64,000 bases of DNA from Magnetococcales bacterium (GCA_015232645.1 JADFZF010000001.1:12374-76373), one strand, 5' to 3'; shown: positions 7,922 to 52,894, counted from the first letter of the stretch. Notes: generated by a model from the letters alone, not told the origin. Translations and numbers: made by a program.

Positions 7922-10690
7922 TCAGGTTTTCACCGGCTTCAAGGCGTTTGCGGCCATTTTCAAAGCAATGCGCCGCCGATGGATCCAGGCCGCCAGCTGG
8001 GGCTCATGATCACGAAGATCGTGAGAGAGTTTCATGGCCAAATCATGCCAATCTCTCATGCAGTCAAAAACCCCAGAGGAACGTTTTCCCAACAAATCCC
8101 ACAAAATTCCCATGAGCGCTCTCACCGTATCTTCCCCACCTTGAGGTACATGTTGATGGTTGTTTTTGATCGGCAATAACCAATGAGCCCACTCCCCCAT
8201 CAAAAGTCCGATAAATTGTTCATGACTGGCAACTCTGGGAGTCCGCTCCGCCAAGGACTCCAGGGATTCTCCAACCATGGAATTGACGTCCGGATACGAC
8301 TGGACTGATCTCTGGCTGTCCGGAACCTCAAACCAATGCTTGAGTATGAACTGATTCCAATTGGGGCCCGAATCCAGTTCACGAAATACTGCCATGGCCG
8401 GATGGACAAGGGCGGAAAGAACAAACCTTGCGTTTTCAGAAATTTGCCATTTACCATCGGCGACAAAGGCCACAGGAGAAAGAAAGCGCAGAGACTCTCC
8501 CTTGAAATTTACTGCTCCCTGGAGACCAGTGAAACAGAGTTGCGGAAAGAGAGGCAAGGCAAACCTGGGTAAGGAATCCAGACGATCAGAAAGTGGCTGA
8601 TTGGCTGGAGGAATCCAAGCTAGAATTTTTTCAATGGTCCCAGACCCGGATGGCAAGGAGCGTTGACAGAAGGTCACAAGGGCTTGAAAAAGTTTTTTAG
8701 AGTCCACCTGCGAATTATCGGAACTTACAATCAAACGTTTATACCAATGCAAAGCCCCTTCCGGCAAATCGTCCCCCAGGTGGGTAATGAAATAAAGCGT
8801 CTCTCCCCATAGACCCATTTGGATCAACTCATTCATGAATCGTTTGATCATATCGTGAGTACGGTCGACTTTTAGAAGGGAGCGGATGAGCTGAGTCAAC
8901 CGCAGCATGAATTTTTCCTTTGCCCCTCTGGCGGCTTCCCTAGACAGAGCATTGAAGATGACTGCCAGGGGAGTCCCATTGGTCTCTTGGGAATCAGCCC
9001 ATTTCAGATCCAAGGCCATACTGGTCCCCAGCATCCAGGAGATCAGCCATTTTTGGTTAAAATTGGATACCTCCATCACCATTTCCCTGGCGATGGCAAT
9101 GGTGGCGGCGGTGATGGCATCGCTGTCGTAAAACAACAACCCCCTGACCTGGATCTCCTTGAAACACGAGTACCGTATTTCCACATCGGCCTTTTCCAAA
9201 GCCTTTTGGGCTGCCTGTCGATATATCGTCCGGTCAAAATCGAAAAAACGTCTTCCGTCCTCATCCTTGAGCAAATTCAGGTGAAGCTTCCTGTAAACCT
9301 CGCTGGAATCCCTTTCCCACAATTGCCATAAGGTAATCGTCTCGGGGACATGCTCGTACTTGATATTTCCCTTTTTAGTCGTCTTTTTTAAGACTTTAAA
9401 TATCCGGTTGACAGATATATGCTCAAGGAAAAAACGCAACACTGAGACAAAATCGGGTTGTGAAAGCTTGGAAAAATAGATGGCGACATAGATCACATAA
9501 CGATTAAGTAAGGCCGATGCCCGTTGGTTCAGGTCATCGCTAAGCTTCAATAGATCCAGATACTCTTCGACCGGTACGTCTAACGGAGCCGTTCCCAGAT
9601 CGTTCAGTAGGTCATTGAAGGTATCATCCATGATACGGTCCCGTACCAAGCCAAAACAGGACTCGGGATCGTAATCTTGAGAAAGCGGATGCCTGTTCCA
9701 TTTCCTCCAAAGATCGGAATAATCGTTTGGGAAATGGCTACGGATCAAAGCCTCCACTGGATCAATTTTTAATATTTTAATGTTACCTTGCAAAGGAAAA
9801 CGGTTTACGGTCTCAGGATGAATCAACAAAACGAGCTGAATGTTTCGTTTGACCAACATCTGACGTAGCGGTTCCAAAGATGTTTTGCTCTCTTTGGCAA
9901 AATGGGACAAAAAAAACTTCACTGTAAGGTATTCCGCAGAGATCAGCTCGACAACTAACAGTTTCTTTTCTTCCAAAATATCTAAAAACGATTCGTTTAA
10001 CAGTATTCGGTCCCGTCCCTCAACCAAGTCCCTGAACCTCAAAACCCAACCAGTTTGGGCTGATCCGTCCGCCCTAGCCTGCTTTCCCAGGTGAATCGCC
10101 ACCTGCATAGCGATCTCTGCCACAGAGCACTGAATCACCAATAGACGACGATCAGTGAGTTCTCTACCATAGCTATCCAACTGATCGATATCCAACGGCA
10201 CCCCACCTGCCCTGGGGGTCAAATCGAGGTTCCTAAAATTTTTCGATCCAAGGTGAAGGCCGTCCGCATCATCGGGCTCTCCTTGGGAAAAACCATCCAA
10301 GGTAAAAATATTAATATTTTTAGACGCTTGGAATATTTGTGGTCGATCCCCTGTTGCAGTTCCTTTCTGGATAATATTGTTATTACCAAGAAGCGGACTT
10401 TTAGTCTTGGTGCCAAGTCCCTCGTGGGTTTGGGGAAACGATCCCCCATCCTCCTCCGAGGGAACAGATGACGATTTATCTTTTTTAGTCCCTGGGGTCT
10501 CCGCCGGGGAGGCCCCAGTGGTTAAAGGGTCTGGGAGTGACCCCATATTTTCTGACCCGTGGCGTTGACTATCGGCTGGATCGAACGGGAGGGGGTCATT
10601 GGCCCCATGACTAGCGTTCGGCCAACTCGATTTGTCCGCGTTGGAACCTTGAGCACCTTTCCCATCAAGAGACGTTTCGGGCTTGTTCAT
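7922..10690 (-). CDS. Hypothetical 922-aa protein: disordered N-tail, shared short motif, STAND-NTPase-like core lacking Walker A/B residues, and a long alpha-helical C-terminal region
   Basis: Long ORF whose ATG is preceded by GGAAAGGG, 13 nt after the TIR gene stop. Residues 181-320 show a beta-helix-beta pattern like a P-loop NTPase (RRLLVIQCSVAEIAMQVAIHLG ... KKLLVVELI ... NIQLVLLIHPE ... IKILKIDPVEALIRSHF), but no GxxxxGK[ST] motif occurs anywhere. Confidence 0.75.
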   Translation of the reverse strand: MNKPETSLDGKGAQGSNADKSSWPNASHGANDPLPFDPADSQRHGSENMGSLPDPLTTGASPAETPGTKKDKSSSVPSEEDGGSFPQTHEGLGTKTKSPLLGNNNIIQKGTATGDRPQIFQASKNINIFTLDGFSQGEPDDADGLHLGSKNFRNLDLTPRAGGVPLDIDQLDSYGRELTDRRLLVIQCSVAEIAMQVAIHLGKQARADGSAQTGWVLRFRDLVEGRDRILLNESFLDILEEKKLLVVELISAEYLTVKFFLSHFAKESKTSLEPLRQMLVKRNIQLVLLIHPETVNRFPLQGNIKILKIDPVEALIRSHFPNDYSDLWRKWNRHPLSQDYDPESCFGLVRDRIMDDTFNDLLNDLGTAPLDVPVEEYLDLLKLSDDLNQRASALLNRYVIYVAIYFSKLSQPDFVSVLRFFLEHISVNRIFKVLKKTTKKGNIKYEHVPETITLWQLWERDSSEVYRKLHLNLLKDEDGRRFFDFDRTIYRQAAQKALEKADVEIRYSCFKEIQVRGLLFYDSDAITAATIAIAREMVMEVSNFNQKWLISWMLGTSMALDLKWADSQETNGTPLAVIFNALSREAARGAKEKFMLRLTQLIRSLLKVDRTHDMIKRFMNELIQMGLWGETLYFITHLGDDLPEGALHWYKRLIVSSDNSQVDSKKLFQALVTFCQRSLPSGSGTIEKILAWIPPANQPLSDRLDSLPRFALPLFPQLCFTGLQGAVNFKGESLRFLSPVAFVADGKWQISENARFVLSALVHPAMAVFRELDSGPNWNQFILKHWFEVPDSQRSVQSYPDVNSMVGESLESLAERTPRVASHEQFIGLLMGEWAHWLLPIKNNHQHVPQGGEDTVRALMGILWDLLGKRSSGVFDCMRDWHDLAMKLSHDLRDHEPQLAAWIHRRRIALKMAANALKPVKT

Positions 10691-10703
10691 GAAACCCTTT
10701 CCA

Positions 10704-11402
10704 TCAGAATAAACGGGATGAACTCATTCTGAGTGCCAAATCTCTCCAATTGATGCCCTCAGGCATGGGAACCTTGAGACGTCTGCAAAGCCCGGCCCCT
10801 AATTCCTTTAGCCCACCCCGATCATCAAGATTAACGCTGGCTCGCAACTGGTATGGAAGAGGTAACCCGCTCGGTGTCAAGCCCCCGTGACATAAAAAAA
10901 TAATAGGAATGCCCCGAGACCAAGCATATCCAACTTCAAAATTGATCCAATGCCGCTGAAACGTGTCGTGATCGGCTAACACTAAGAAAATCAGTACACT
11001 TGAAAGGGCATTTTCCAATTTTACCAGCCAGTTATCTCCAAAATCGACGCTTTCAGGAGATGAAAAAATAAATACATTATAACCCGGAACTATAATTTCG
11101 ATAATTTCCTTCATAGAAATTGCCAACGATGAATCCTGTTGGGAATAGCTAATAAACAGAGTAAAATCTGCTCTCTCGGAAGACTGAATGGCTCCCGCGG
11201 CTTGATGAACCTGGGAGGTCTTCCCAGAAGGCAACGGTCCGAGTTGACATTCAAGCAAATCAATATCCTGCGGCAGGTGGTTTTCCATGGAATGGCCAAT
11301 ATCGGATGCGACCTGGTTGACACGAACAGCTCCGCCCGCCTGGATTACTACACTGCCAGGAGCCGTTGCCTGGCCCCTTTGAATAATGTTTTTTTTTGCC
11401 AT
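10704..11402 (-). CDS. TIR-domain protein with a short N-terminal pairing motif (first gene of the operon)
   Basis: TIR-type signature FTLFISYSQQD ... NVFIFSS ... DNWLVKLENALSSVLIFLVLADHDTFQRHWINFEVGYAW. The preferred start is the ATG at 11402 (MAKKNIIQRG), which is preceded by GGGGGAAG. The ORF track extends to 11426. Confidence 0.8.
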   Translation of the reverse strand: MAKKNIIQRGQATAPGSVVIQAGGAVRVNQVASDIGHSMENHLPQDIDLLECQLGPLPSGKTSQVHQAAGAIQSSERADFTLFISYSQQDSSLAISMKEIIEIIVPGYNVFIFSSPESVDFGDNWLVKLENALSSVLIFLVLADHDTFQRHWINFEVGYAWSRGIPIIFLCHGGLTPSGLPLPYQLRASVNLDDRGGLKELGAGLCRRLKVPMPEGINWRDLALRMSSSRLF

Positions 11403-11812
11403 GGCACTTCCCCCGCAATACGTCACGCGATGATCACTTTTGCTGCCGAGATGACCCTCATACGGTTTAGCCTATGGTATATTTTATTCTAGTTATATTC
11501 AAGATATTTTTTTGATACACGCATGTTTATTTTTCACCAATTGGATATAATATGTTATTTACCTTGGAAATGTAAAAATCTAATTCTTATGTAATACATT
11601 AAATGTTATATTATTCAATAATCAGTCCGTATTGTGGCGCGAAAAGCTAACGCAACGTACAATGTTCTTGCTTCAGTCATTATGTCGGCCACCAAGTATC
11701 CAGCCGTCCAAACAAGATGGTTAGCCCAAAGGAGGCTGAAACGAAAATTGCTTCCCTCTTGGCTGATGAAGGGGCCTTATTCCAATTCCTATTGACTCGG
11801 CAGCGATGGCTG

Positions 11813-50160: not shown

Positions 50161-51138
50161 TCAATACAGTCCATTATGCCGGTTAAAATTCACCTTCCCA
50201 GACCCGATATATTCATCGGAATGCAGCTTCGGGATAACGTGAACGTTCATGTTCATGTTTAAAAACTGCAAAGACATGACCAACATGAACAGTACGACCA
50301 TCCCTAAAATAATCAGCAGGGAGCTGACGAGATCGGTGGCCCAACCGGGAGTCGACCATTCGGTGCCAAAGCGGACGAACACTACGATGCCGATACCACC
50401 CATGGCTGCGACGATAATTCCCATCAAGGTGAAGAAAATTCGCGCATAAACGATTTCCCCAAAAACAGAAATTCCGTTGAGCCCATGGACCAATAAATTC
50501 CCTAAATTCTGCGACGACTGACCAAAATAACGTTCTCCCCGCTTCGAAGGAATCGAGTGATAGGGAATTCGCGAACGAATGATTGCGGATGGGTAATGCT
50601 GCCAAAGTTCCGGGCGAGAAACGAGGCTGATCAATCGATTTTTGGGTACGAGACTATAATTGCCAAAGTTGACAACCTTACCCACAAGCAGGCTGAATAA
50701 CAGACGATAAAAAAAATACCCCACTTTAAAGGCCATATTCTCCGTACGATTGCGCCGGGTACAAACCCAAATATCCTGTGAATTTTCGCCATGGAGGCGG
50801 ATCAGCTCGGGGATGGATTCCGGGCTGTCCTCGCCATCCGAATCCATGACAATGACGGCTTCAAAATCCCATTCCTGTTTCTCCAGATGAGCCAATCCCA
50901 TGGAAATCGCCTTTTGATTGCCCAAATTACAGATCAAATTCCAGGTTTCAACTTTGACCACGCAGCCTCTGGGTGGCAAGGATTGAAAATCCAAGGTATC
51001 CAGAGTGGTAGAACCGTCGTTGATAGCCAAAACATGGAGACAGGCATCGTTCAATGGCAACGCGTTCAGGTCTTCGACCAATTGTTGCAGGCAGGGCCAG
51101 TCGTTGAACACAGGCGTCAAGACAACGAATGTGCGCAT
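50161..51138 (-). CDS. Family 2 glycosyltransferase with C-terminal TM helices (polyprenyl-phosphate sugar synthase type, GtrB/ArnC-like)
   Basis: VVLTPVFNDW, AINDGS and a DxD-type MDSDGED motif, plus two hydrophobic C-terminal helices. The DNA is low in GC. Confidence 0.75.
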   Translation of the reverse strand: MRTFVVLTPVFNDWPCLQQLVEDLNALPLNDACLHVLAINDGSTTLDTLDFQSLPPRGCVVKVETWNLICNLGNQKAISMGLAHLEKQEWDFEAVIVMDSDGEDSPESIPELIRLHGENSQDIWVCTRRNRTENMAFKVGYFFYRLLFSLLVGKVVNFGNYSLVPKNRLISLVSRPELWQHYPSAIIRSRIPYHSIPSKRGERYFGQSSQNLGNLLVHGLNGISVFGEIVYARIFFTLMGIIVAAMGGIGIVVFVRFGTEWSTPGWATDLVSSLLIILGMVVLFMLVMSLQFLNMNMNVHVIPKLHSDEYIGSGKVNFNRHNGLY

Positions 51139-51205
51139 TGTGGGTTACCATGAGGGAGTTGTTTATTTAATATACCAAATAATAATTTATATCAAGTTTA
51201 TATGC

Positions 51206-52894
51206 TTAAAATAATTTTTGAAAATGAGGCGATTTAATTACGGAAAAAATCATACCCAAGCGCTCAATGCGATCAATAACCGGCAGTTGAGGAAATTTTT
51301 TGTCCGAATCCCACCGTGTTGAAGCCAAGATAAAGTCTGGATGAGTCACCTGATCTTCTTCTAAAATGATAAAGTTTTTCGGCATGAATTCCTTGATGTT
51401 GATGGGGACATAAAAAACACCGACGGTAAACCGACGATCTTCGAACGCCACATTTTCCCGTGCAGCGACTTGTCGAGCGTAGTCGATTATTTTTTTTGCG
51501 GCCTCGTAATAGGAAGTCATCCAATAATCGGTTTCAAACCATTTGGAAGCTTCAGGCATGCCGCCCGCGAAAATATTATAAAAAACGTATTGATACGGAT
51601 GTAATTTAATCATAAGATGAATATGATAGGTCAGATAGATGGCAAAAATGCCAATGAGCAAGGGTCGGATAATGATGCCAAGACGTTGAACCAGGCTTCC
51701 CCACTGCGCGAACGCGACTCCTGACAATACTGCTAACGATGGAACGACGAATAACAGATGCCGAATTCCATCATAAACCGCGCTGTGGTTAATGATCACA
51801 ATGGCAGGAGGCATCAATGTGGATACAAGGAGCAAGACAAGGGCGACAAATTCCTTGGTTGCCAACTGGTGCCAATGTTTCCAAGATTTCCATAGCGACC
51901 AGATCAGTACCGGAACAGATATAATTACAAGAAGTTCGGGCAAATTGACCAAAAAGTAGCCTGGGATGTAGTCCCATGGCAATTTTGAGGCATAAACATA
52001 GTGACCCTTGAATAACACCGATTTGGTCCAGACATGATGCGTTGCTGCTTGTAAAATGGAGTTGAAACGCAAAGGGTTGAAGCACAAATATGGCCAAAAT
52101 AACAACATTAAACCTGAAGCGATGGTCAAAGGGATGAAGAAGGCGCGCGCCAAGGACGATTGCTGTATATAATGCCAAGATTCCTTTATCCCCGGGTGGC
52201 GGCGATAGTGGAACAACAACACGATGGTCCAGGCCAGTCCCATATATCCGATCAGCAAAATCCCCCCGATGCGAACCCCGATGGCCAGAGCCATGGACAG
52301 GCCGAGTTTAATGAGCAATCCTTTCGAAACATCTAGAGGCCTTTCGACCAGCCGAATCAGATAATATAAAGTCCAAATGGTACCAGTGGCAAAAGGGATA
52401 TCCTTGGCGTTGATGAAGGTGTGGCCATAAAACACTGGAGTCATTGCCAAAAATAGCAACGACCAAAACCCCGCTTTTGGTCCCGCGATCACACGACCGG
52501 TCTTCCAGGTTCCTACAAACGCGAGGAATCCGGTCAGAACATTGACAATACGGCGAGTCAGATGGCCCGGCAACGGCAACAGCCACGCCAACATTTCCGA
52601 CAGGGTATCGTAGAGGCCACCAAAAAGGTGCAGGTCGAGATATTTCAAGGCCCGGACATCAACACCGAAGGTCGCGTAAAAGCTGGCGATGGCCTTGCCA
52701 TAAAATCGATTCTGCCAAACCTCGTCATAGCTGTAGCCGTAATCACGGCAGGTGATCAGCATCAGCAAACCGAGGCAAACAAGGATCAGTGTAGAAAGAC
52801 GGTCATACACGGCTTCCCAATCAGGAGCCGCCGTCCTGGGGATAACTTCAACTGCAAGATCCATAAGAGACTCACCCACGTCCCGTGGACGCAT
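51206..52894 (-). CDS. GT-C fold membrane glycosyltransferase (ArnT/PMT-like)
   Basis: 562 aa with more than 10 predicted TM helices and an acidic first-loop motif (GYSYDEVW) like the DE motif of PMT/ArnT enzymes. The start is uncertain (ATG at 52894 or 52864). Confidence 0.7.
   Translation of the reverse strand: MRPRDVGESLMDLAVEVIPRTAAPDWEAVYDRLSTLILVCLGLLMLITCRDYGYSYDEVWQNRFYGKAIASFYATFGVDVRALKYLDLHLFGGLYDTLSEMLAWLLPLPGHLTRRIVNVLTGFLAFVGTWKTGRVIAGPKAGFWSLLFLAMTPVFYGHTFINAKDIPFATGTIWTLYYLIRLVERPLDVSKGLLIKLGLSMALAIGVRIGGILLIGYMGLAWTIVLLFHYRRHPGIKESWHYIQQSSLARAFFIPLTIASGLMLLFWPYLCFNPLRFNSILQAATHHVWTKSVLFKGHYVYASKLPWDYIPGYFLVNLPELLVIISVPVLIWSLWKSWKHWHQLATKEFVALVLLLVSTLMPPAIVIINHSAVYDGIRHLLFVVPSLAVLSGVAFAQWGSLVQRLGIIIRPLLIGIFAIYLTYHIHLMIKLHPYQYVFYNIFAGGMPEASKWFETDYWMTSYYEAAKKIIDYARQVAARENVAFEDRRFTVGVFYVPINIKEFMPKNFIILEEDQVTHPDFILASTRWDSDKKFPQLPVIDRIERLGMIFSVIKSPHFQKLF

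Follow-up and report, generated by a model that had tools for sequence, protein, structure and literature searches.

Gene X and its reading frame

Gene X encodes an NLR-like protein of 922 residues on the minus strand of a 64,000-nucleotide stretch of DNA from a Magnetococcales bacterium (GCA_015232645.1 JADFZF010000001.1:12374-76373). The whole stretch is called the window here, and coordinates refer to it unless a related locus is named. X is the middle one of three co-directional genes that make up an operon, in which it is preceded by a gene for a TIR-domain effector (E) and followed by a gene for a soluble partner (Y). NLR and STAND immune receptors are understood, from bacteria to humans, as switches driven by ADP and ATP. 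The X protein resembles them in its predicted fold and has lost the P-loop throughout its family. All evidence is computational: fold similarity, the family-wide loss of Walker A, gene order, effector swapping and co-varying motifs were computed, and from them we infer mechanistic steps, a role in defence and independence from nucleotides. The features of X are the following.

7922..10690, minus strand: gene X, NLR-like protein of 922 residues (open reading frame, AlphaFold2 model, 137 distant homologues)
10247..10690, minus strand: residues 1-148, predicted disordered, low-complexity leader (predicted local distance difference test, pLDDT, below 50)
10307..10393, minus strand: residues 100-128, LGNNNIIQKGTATGDRPQIFQASKNINI, short motif with a counterpart at the N-terminus of E (local alignment)
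9731..10180, minus strand: residues 171-320, predicted alpha/beta domain whose strands and helices are ordered as in the nucleotide-binding domain (NBD) of STAND/AAA+ proteins (AlphaFold2, Foldseek, family conservation)
10121..10129, minus strand: residues 188-190 (C-S-V), connector of three residues that joins strand 1 to helix 1 (AlphaFold2 models, family alignment)
9947..9964, minus strand: residues 243-248 (KLLVVE), strand 3, Walker-B-like hhhh[D/E], where h is a hydrophobic residue (AlphaFold2, column counts)
9476..9721, minus strand: residues 324-405, predicted helical domain (AlphaFold2 helices, inside the Foldseek alignments to STAND proteins, 350-430 aligned columns)
9236..9460, minus strand: residues 411-485, predicted winged-helix-like domain of helices and two beta-hairpins (AlphaFold2 models)
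7928..9229, minus strand: residues 488-921, predicted all-alpha repeat-like C-terminal region, presumed sensor or scaffold (AlphaFold2, Foldseek)

Public annotation of this metagenome-assembled genome gives X as a hypothetical protein of 666 residues (P0001) with a GTG start at residue 257. This start removes 9920-10690 of the minus strand and with it the disordered leader, the motif in common with E and the NBD-like domain up to its middle. The 922-residue reading is to be preferred because distant homologues align with X from around residue 27-170 onward, because the first ATG (10690) lies only 13 nucleotides past the stop of gene E and has a GGAAAGG-like site, and because the codon-position GC content is coding-like from about residue 100 on. 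The GTG was rejected as the true start, since homologues keep the 90-230 residues that precede it and since it would bisect the NBD-like domain.

A predicted STAND architecture

The full-length AlphaFold2 model of X (85 sequences) has a mean pLDDT of 78.5 and a predicted TM-score (pTM) of 0.74, with values mostly above 85 past residue 148. A cropped model of residues 150-505 (35 sequences) reaches a mean of 86.6, and its five versions agree (83.8-86.6). Both begin with a helix at 171-181, strand 183-187, the connector, helix 191-207 and strand 213-218, and run on through strands 243-248, 284-290 and 305-308 to a helix at 311-319. Over this alpha/beta stretch the pLDDT is mostly 80-96. It is followed by a helical part (324-405), a winged-helix-like part (411-485) and helical repeats up to residue 921. 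Conservation within the family is highest in the winged-helix-like domain, where F414, W458 and F485 are nearly invariant.

The strand/helix order had been proposed in a preliminary description of the locus, which read residues 181-320 (window 9731..10150) as the core of a P-loop NTPase and cited four strings of sequence. These are residues 181-202, 242-250, 283-293 and 304-320, all inside that interval of the 922-residue frame, and the predicted secondary structure elements fall at the proposed positions. The pattern is also kept in 35 distant relatives, the sample used for all column statistics below, and so is not a chance hydrophobic run.

Structural comparison with the PDB by Foldseek points in the same direction. 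For the full model, SAMD9 (E 1.6e-6) and Avs3 (5e-4) come first, then MalT, CED-4 and SSO1545 and, lower, Dark; ORC, TRIP13 and helical-solenoid proteins are mixed in from rank 6, and karyopherin/HEAT-like solenoids lie below the STAND proteins. For the cropped model, all 24 matches with E<=1e-3 are STAND or AAA+ P-loop proteins. They include NLRP14 and a related cytoplasmic-lattice chain, Sr35, CED-4, SAMD9, Apaf-1, NLRC4 and SSO1545, together with ClpA/ClpC1, TRIP13 and ORC subunits; NRC2, MLA13, Avs5 and NLRP3 come just under the threshold. With probabilities of 0.96-1.00 and alignments over 290-460 columns, the matches cover NBD, helical and winged-helix sub-domains in the same order. Neither a Rossmann nor a flavodoxin nor a TIR fold occurs among the top 50 matches listed for this model.

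Sequence searches, in contrast, provide no such link. X hits no family of Pfam or NCBIfam at E<=1 and nothing in PADLOC or PHROGs. Pfam searches with 40 relatives return no P-loop, NACHT, NB-ARC or AAA family at E<=0.01, the only matches being the unrelated CNOT11, GT-D-like and AbiJ_NTD3, in one member each. Against the PDB, phmmer and hmmsearch with X or its profile yield noise, for example the designed protein OR280 (E 0.004-0.04), and hhalign gives a probability of 0.1% for the profile of the N-terminal module against the genuine AAA_16 STAND protein of a related locus (L001). A tblastn search of X against plasmids finds no match, and a word-indexed protein search with X returns X itself or nothing; the low-complexity leader probably saturates the candidates there. 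The P-loop fold proposed earlier is thus matched by structure comparison, with its STAND/AAA+ order of NBD, helical and winged-helix domains, and not by sequence profiles: X belongs to no detectable STAND profile (Pfam NACHT, NB-ARC, AAA_16 and the like), and has the STAND order of these three domains followed by repeats in its predicted structure.

A P-loop lost throughout the family

A motif scan finds neither [AG]xxxxGK[ST] nor even GK[ST] anywhere in the 922 residues of X, so the absence of GxxxxGK[ST] noted in the preliminary description is borne out. In the same window, ModC keeps a normal Walker A, GRSGSGKT, within its ABC_tran match. An exhaustive phmmer search of X against 1.84 billion cluster representatives (threshold E<=1e-3) retrieved 137 relatives, counted as clusters at 50% identity, which share 20-27% identity with X and are mostly 800-1000 residues long; 42 of them have E-values below 1e-10. 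The source names of ten relatives are mostly 'hypothetical' or missing; one comes from Candidatus Kentron and an IMG record carries the odd name 'gas vesicle protein'.

The family alignment holds 136 sequences, 113 of which cover the segment from strand 1 to helix 1. At this junction none of the 113 has GK[ST] or any glycine-rich loop, and every one follows the pattern R-h-h-h-h-[S/G/D]-[C/S]-x-[D/N/H]-x-x-h-A-x-x-A-A-Y, with a family consensus of S-C-x-[D/N] at the connector (35 relatives). Whether orthologues retain the motif can therefore be answered for Walker A: it is gone family-wide. Strings resembling it occur in just five of the 137 relatives, at residues 13, 91, 205, 305 and 744 of their own proteins, and these do not appear to fall at the strand 1-helix 1 junction when the register is estimated from the pairwise phmmer alignment. 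In X the connector consists of three residues (C188-S189-V190), compared to eight for GxxxxGK[ST], and this indicates that the P-loop was shortened away or deleted rather than substituted. For the same reason it cannot be asserted, as it once was, that the position of the lysine is taken by an isoleucine.

Walker B has had a different fate. The end of its strand carries Asp in 20 of the 35 relatives and Glu in five (E248 in X), while the following residue is Ala or Leu, so that the second acidic residue is lost. Both Walker motifs had been described as completely eroded; this holds for Walker A, but Walker B has kept its first acid and is vestigial rather than fully eroded. Among the same relatives the sensor-1-like strand reads h-L-h-C-h-V-[N/D]-P, and the last element of the alpha/beta domain W-x-I-[P/D]-F-L-x-x-L-L-x-x-x-F-P. 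Conserved polar positions are R182 (Arg or His in 34/35), R215 (Arg in 29/35) and the pair Q334-R335. We hold with good confidence that the modelled fold of X is similar to the STAND core and that its P-loop has been lost.

Three further observations concern the family. At position 188, where strand 1 ends, 26 of the 35 relatives share the Cys of X, and column 288 in strand 4 is Cys in 22 of them and Leu in X; the two cysteines might lie on neighbouring strands, which could mean that most relatives, though not X itself, have a redox or metal site. Just before the NBD-like domain, residues 150-170 (10181-10243, minus strand) carry a conserved motif, NFRNLDLTPRAGGVPLDID in the window, with the family consensus h-x-[D/E]-x-T-x-x-L-P-x(5-6)-P-x-F and a short predicted strand at 152-155. 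In P0002, the closest relative (L009:5600-6300), one in-frame stop divides X into open reading frames of 132 and 734 residues. The apparent start inside the domain is due to this stop and was rejected as natural, as the upstream frame runs on with LLLIQCDDRGVAQYAAFQL and the sequence past the stop with RQQLLLIQCDDRGVAQYAAFQL; the stop itself could be a sequencing error, a mark of a pseudogene or a site of read-through.

A conserved operon with exchangeable effectors

The genes that accompany X in the window, and the stretches that follow in some of its relatives, are these.

10704..11426, minus strand: gene E, TIR-domain effector, open reading frame of 240 residues (Pfam, PADLOC ThsB-like, phrog_29177)
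5444..7843, minus strand: gene Y, soluble partner of 799 residues downstream of X (orthology, weak Band_7)
L001:13374-15913, L003:13747-16543, L006:8762-10969 and L007:6849-8813: ZorA/ZorB-like stretches in relatives

E comes just short of the cut-offs of the Pfam families TIR_2 (8e-6; 26.8 bits, cut-off 28) and ThsB_TIR (5e-4; 20.8 bits, cut-off 21.2) and matches a ThsB-like model of PADLOC and phrog_29177 (2e-20), and its orthologues at related loci carry TIR_2 matches. The listed frame opens at a GTG (VTYCGGSA-MAKKNIIQ...), and the likely start is an ATG at 11402 (window 11402-11426, minus strand), which would place the motif in common with X at the extreme N-terminus, as seen elsewhere (MPKQTQIG...; MAKIQGEIG... 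in L007). Between this motif and the TIR domain, E contains the string GPLPSGKT (residues 63-70; 11217-11240, minus strand). It was considered as a displaced P-loop and rejected: the linker is not conserved, and the string is most likely a chance match to Walker A.

Y has a C-terminal coiled-coil and acidic tail, no transmembrane segment and no match in the PDB by sequence. It shares 29% identity over 671 residues with its counterpart in L001 (E 7e-81); the TIR proteins of the two loci share 34%. The preliminary description spoke of an SPFH-like partner. A conserved partner is indeed there, but the SPFH label comes from a sub-threshold Pfam match to Band_7/SPFH (7e-4; 20.1 bits, cut-off 23.6), with similar sub-threshold matches in two of five orthologues.

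Comparison of the neighbourhoods of eight X relatives shows that the order effector, X, Y is conserved across loci at 25-34% identity. The gene before X encodes a TIR_2 protein in L001/2, L003-5, L007 and L009 and a CHAT protease in L006 (2194-3414) and L011 (5128-5880), which is effector swapping with retention of the adaptor. A Y orthologue of 760-830 residues comes after X wherever the contig goes on. Behind Y, a ZorA-like and then a ZorB-like gene follow in L001, L003-5 and L006, and L007 has the ZorA-like gene up to the end of its contig. The ZorA-like protein has four transmembrane helices, an LGILGTFIGL motif and a long coiled-coil tail (ZorA3 5.6e-15, MotA_ExbB 2.9e-6); the ZorB/MotB-like protein has one transmembrane helix with an Asp ('GPGTDLVVSL') and matches ZorB1 (4e-5) or OmpA-like families. 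Such genes were also sought elsewhere in the window and ruled out there: tblastn with seven of the relatives' proteins gave a best E-value of 0.18. Neither the window nor any of 11 related loci contains a MoxR or vWA gene.

The operon sits in an island at about 5200-11500 with a GC content of 0.46, compared to 0.55-0.58 in the flanks, between GCS2/TauE and the ModE/ModABC molybdate genes. A second GC-poor stretch (50161-52894, minus strand; 0.46-0.48) holds GT2 and PMT_2-type glycosyltransferases beside FlgO and a cytidylyltransferase and looks like an ordinary surface-glycan cluster.

A motif common to the effector and X

A short motif close to the N-terminus of E recurs in the disordered leader of X, about 50-70 residues ahead of the alpha/beta domain. 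In the window the two copies align locally with a score of 45, compared to a mean of 31 for shuffled sequences.

11331..11396, minus strand: E residues 11-32, KKNIIQRGQATAPGSVVIQAGG, N-terminal counterpart of X residues 100-128 (local alignment)
Window pair: E KKNIIQRGQATAPGSVVIQAGG / X NNNIIQKGTATGDRPQIFQAS
L001 pair: E RDQVQAGRDVHIT / X RDQLQAGRDLNIT
L007 pair: E KIQGEIGRDGI / X QIQGNIGRDGI
L009 pair: E IKFHKSTVHGDVQSAHTIDNRRY / X ITFRESTVEGDVQSAHNIDNKRY
L011 pair: E IGGDVRDVQTFHIG (C-terminus of the CHAT protein) / X IGGDVSSDTFHVG

Over seven loci, cognate effector/X pairs reach a mean score of 51 and non-cognate pairs 21. The pair is clear in five of the seven, each locus has a version of its own, and the two partners co-vary; in L009 they are about 70% identical over 23 residues. 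TIR effectors carry the motif at the N-terminus and CHAT effectors at the C-terminus. The shared N-terminal motif mentioned in the preliminary description is therefore real and general, and its recurrence and co-variation strengthen one route of activation suggested there, namely through this motif.

Interpretation and alternatives

We read X as an iSTAND-like, NLR-type scaffold, encoded between effector and partner in a conserved operon for conflict or defence, and give this reading a probability of roughly 0.6. According to the models, residues 171-485 or so would keep the NBD/helical/winged-helix architecture of STAND ATPases, to be followed by a helical-repeat sensor region. With the P-loop cut to a three-residue connector family-wide, classical switching between ATP and ADP is very unlikely, and true independence of X from nucleotides appears likely. 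From its context, we lean towards a role of the operon in defence. Activation of the effector by templating through the motif has, in our view, slightly less than even odds. Y, joined by the ZorAB-like stator in the fuller systems, probably supplies the trigger or the energy.

A possible sequence of events can be sketched. The repeat region of X would sense a trigger, or Y or the membrane stator, where present, would relay it. X might then open or oligomerise without nucleotide exchange, whereby the motif in its disordered leader would become clustered. The clustered motif could nucleate the effector motif by amyloid-like or beta-augmentation templating, and this would switch on the NADase activity of TIR or the protease activity of CHAT. 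More tentatively, the operon family may be an undescribed immune system that leads from a ZorAB-like envelope sensor and/or the SPFH-like protein through a nucleotide-free NLR-like scaffold to TIR or CHAT by way of a locus-specific amyloid-like motif. A partner or prion-like templating, and not ATP, would then supply the energy for switching, and the window would hold the minimal three-gene form.

Several observations weigh against the scaffold reading. No sequence-based method ties X to any P-loop family, and the TM-scores of the Foldseek matches are about 0.3 with large root-mean-square deviations, as is to be expected from the rigid superposition of three mobile domains. The Walker-B-like acid persists in the family together with R182, R215 and Q334-R335. 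The motif matches are weak in L003 and L006. Since ZorAB-like genes are missing from the window, the operon there may lack components or act in another way. Finally, no member of the X family has a known phenotype in phage defence.

In an unlikely alternative, X would be a switch after all: a non-canonical site built from the acid kept on strand 3 and the conserved arginines would bind ATP, a signal derived from a nucleotide or some other phosphate ligand. An acid at the Walker-B position in 25 of the 35 relatives, the conservation of the arginines and of Q334/R335 noted above and a clear purifying selection for the fold of the alpha/beta domain all speak in its favour. However, the three-residue connector of X offers neither a glycine nor a lysine, and helix 1 is mostly capped at its N-terminus by Asp, Asn or Glu, which would repel phosphate. 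Moreover, TIR is exchangeable with a CHAT protease, so that a part as receptor for a TIR product would not be general.

In a further alternative, the likeness to STAND proteins would not be homology: a generic three-layer alpha/beta fold or a modelling artefact of AlphaFold2 would be joined to unrelated helical and winged-helix domains, and X would be a scaffold from another lineage. This we consider quite improbable, since every significant PDB match of the cropped model is a STAND or AAA+ protein and the 50 listed matches include no Rossmann, flavodoxin or TIR fold, since these alignments pass through all three sub-domains in order, since the five models concur, and since the genomic context, with its TIR or CHAT effectors and common motif, is of NLR type.

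Least probable is that X is a degenerate AAA+ or ORC-Cdc6-type structural subunit of a hetero-complex without NLR-like oligomerisation, a role with precedents among structural pseudo-ATPases (clamp-loader delta, inactive ORC subunits) and with ClpA/ClpC, TRIP13, ORC, RFC, RuvB, MuB and DnaA mixed among the NLR matches at similar E-values, but the best matches of both models are STAND proteins (SAMD9, Avs3, NLRP14, Sr35, CED-4), C-terminal repeats and an adjacent motif-matched death effector are hallmarks of NLRs and not of AAA+ machines, and the loci examined encode no partner ATPase.

If the scaffold reading is confirmed, a family of 137 clusters with the NBD-helical-winged-helix-repeat architecture and no P-loop would be a natural test case for nucleotide-free switching in NLRs. 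It would bring together four lines of research pursued separately until now, on inactive STAND modules, on TIR/CHAT death effectors, on signalling by amyloid-type motifs and on Zorya-like stators. There is a practical side as well: neither PADLOC nor Pfam includes the system, which current annotation of defence systems would hence miss, and public annotation shortens X and hides its domain.

Comparison with known systems

The predicted core of X, an NBD, a helical and a winged-helix domain with repeats behind them, is that of Avs/AVAST, bNACHT, Apaf-1, CED-4, NLRC4 and Sr35. Avs/bNACHT proteins and eukaryotic NLRs are, like X, associated with TIR or caspase-like effectors. Their Walker A and B motifs are intact, and their oligomerisation requires the binding of ATP or dATP. 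X, in contrast, has no P-loop, and its effector is encoded by a separate gene and joined to it by a motif instead of being fused.

The stator genes of the related loci recall Zorya, which likewise combines a MotA-like protein of four transmembrane helices and a coiled coil with a MotB/OmpA-like protein of a single transmembrane helix. The order is reversed, with the stator genes last in the X loci, and in place of the soluble Zorya partners ZorC/D, ZorE or ZorF/G there are TIR or CHAT, X and Y. PADLOC returns no Zor match and no model of any kind for X or Y, and the window operon differs from Zorya further in having no ZorAB-like genes.

Inactive STAND modules are known from several conflict systems: iSTAND and iSTAND2 belong to MoxR-vWA ternary systems, and a third inactive version occurs with GT4/HEPN effectors (PMC7159879, PMC8195603), while BrxB/BrxF and related modules are inactive STANDs in BREX (PMC12839542). 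Sensing or scaffolding roles have been proposed for them (PMC7159879, PMC8195603, PMC12839542), so that a STAND protein independent of nucleotides is no new idea for prokaryotic conflict systems. X lacks the Walker A of a regular STAND protein and shares with iSTAND a (here predicted) STAND-type domain with eroded nucleoside triphosphate (NTP)-binding motifs and a proposed part as sensing or coordinating component. The operons are also alike in their ties to TIR or caspase-like effectors and in having one short module on both the core protein and the neighbouring effector, in line with the 'EAD principle' of an identical adaptor on a core protein and an adjacent effector (Kaur et al. 2020, PMC7159879). 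They differ in their partners, as the X operon has the Y protein of about 800 residues, and ZorAB-like stators in relatives, where the ternary iSTAND systems have operonic MoxR and vWA. They also differ in the adaptor, which is a globular EAD in one case and a motif of some 20-25 residues in a disordered leader in the other. Unlike iSTAND, X matches no Pfam family. BrxB is a compact single domain with a beta-sheet cap after strand 4 and without a C-terminal helical bundle, whereas X is predicted to keep the helical and winged-helix-like domains and about 430 residues of helical repeats and has no BREX partners. No paper describing the combination of X, Y, effector and ZorAB-like genes was found in a search that left subscription journals mostly outside; the multi-gene system that contains this variant of an inactive STAND appears to be undescribed.

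For the motif, the closest parallels are found in bacterial amyloid signalling sequences (BASS). With a core of the G-phi-Q-phi-G type, these couple Bell, TIR2 or CHAT effectors to NLRs (10.1101/2020.01.06.895854). In the Bab/Agp pair, amyloid signalling works with a receptor that is no NTPase (10.1101/2024.11.07.622273). As in BASS1-11, fungal HRAM/PP and RHIM pairs, the products of adjacent receptor and effector genes, here X and E, carry the same short motif, and TIR2 and CHAT effectors are documented for BASS pairs just as TIR or CHAT accompany X. The X/E motifs are BASS-like in composition: they are rich in Gln, Asn and Gly, hydrophobic residues alternate in them, and their cores (VIQAG, QVQAGRD, IQVGRD) resemble phi-Q-phi-G. 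Their placement is different: in X the motif follows a disordered leader of 100-170 residues instead of standing at the extreme N-terminus, and the TIR effectors of X operons carry it N-terminally, where Bell effectors have it at the C-terminus.

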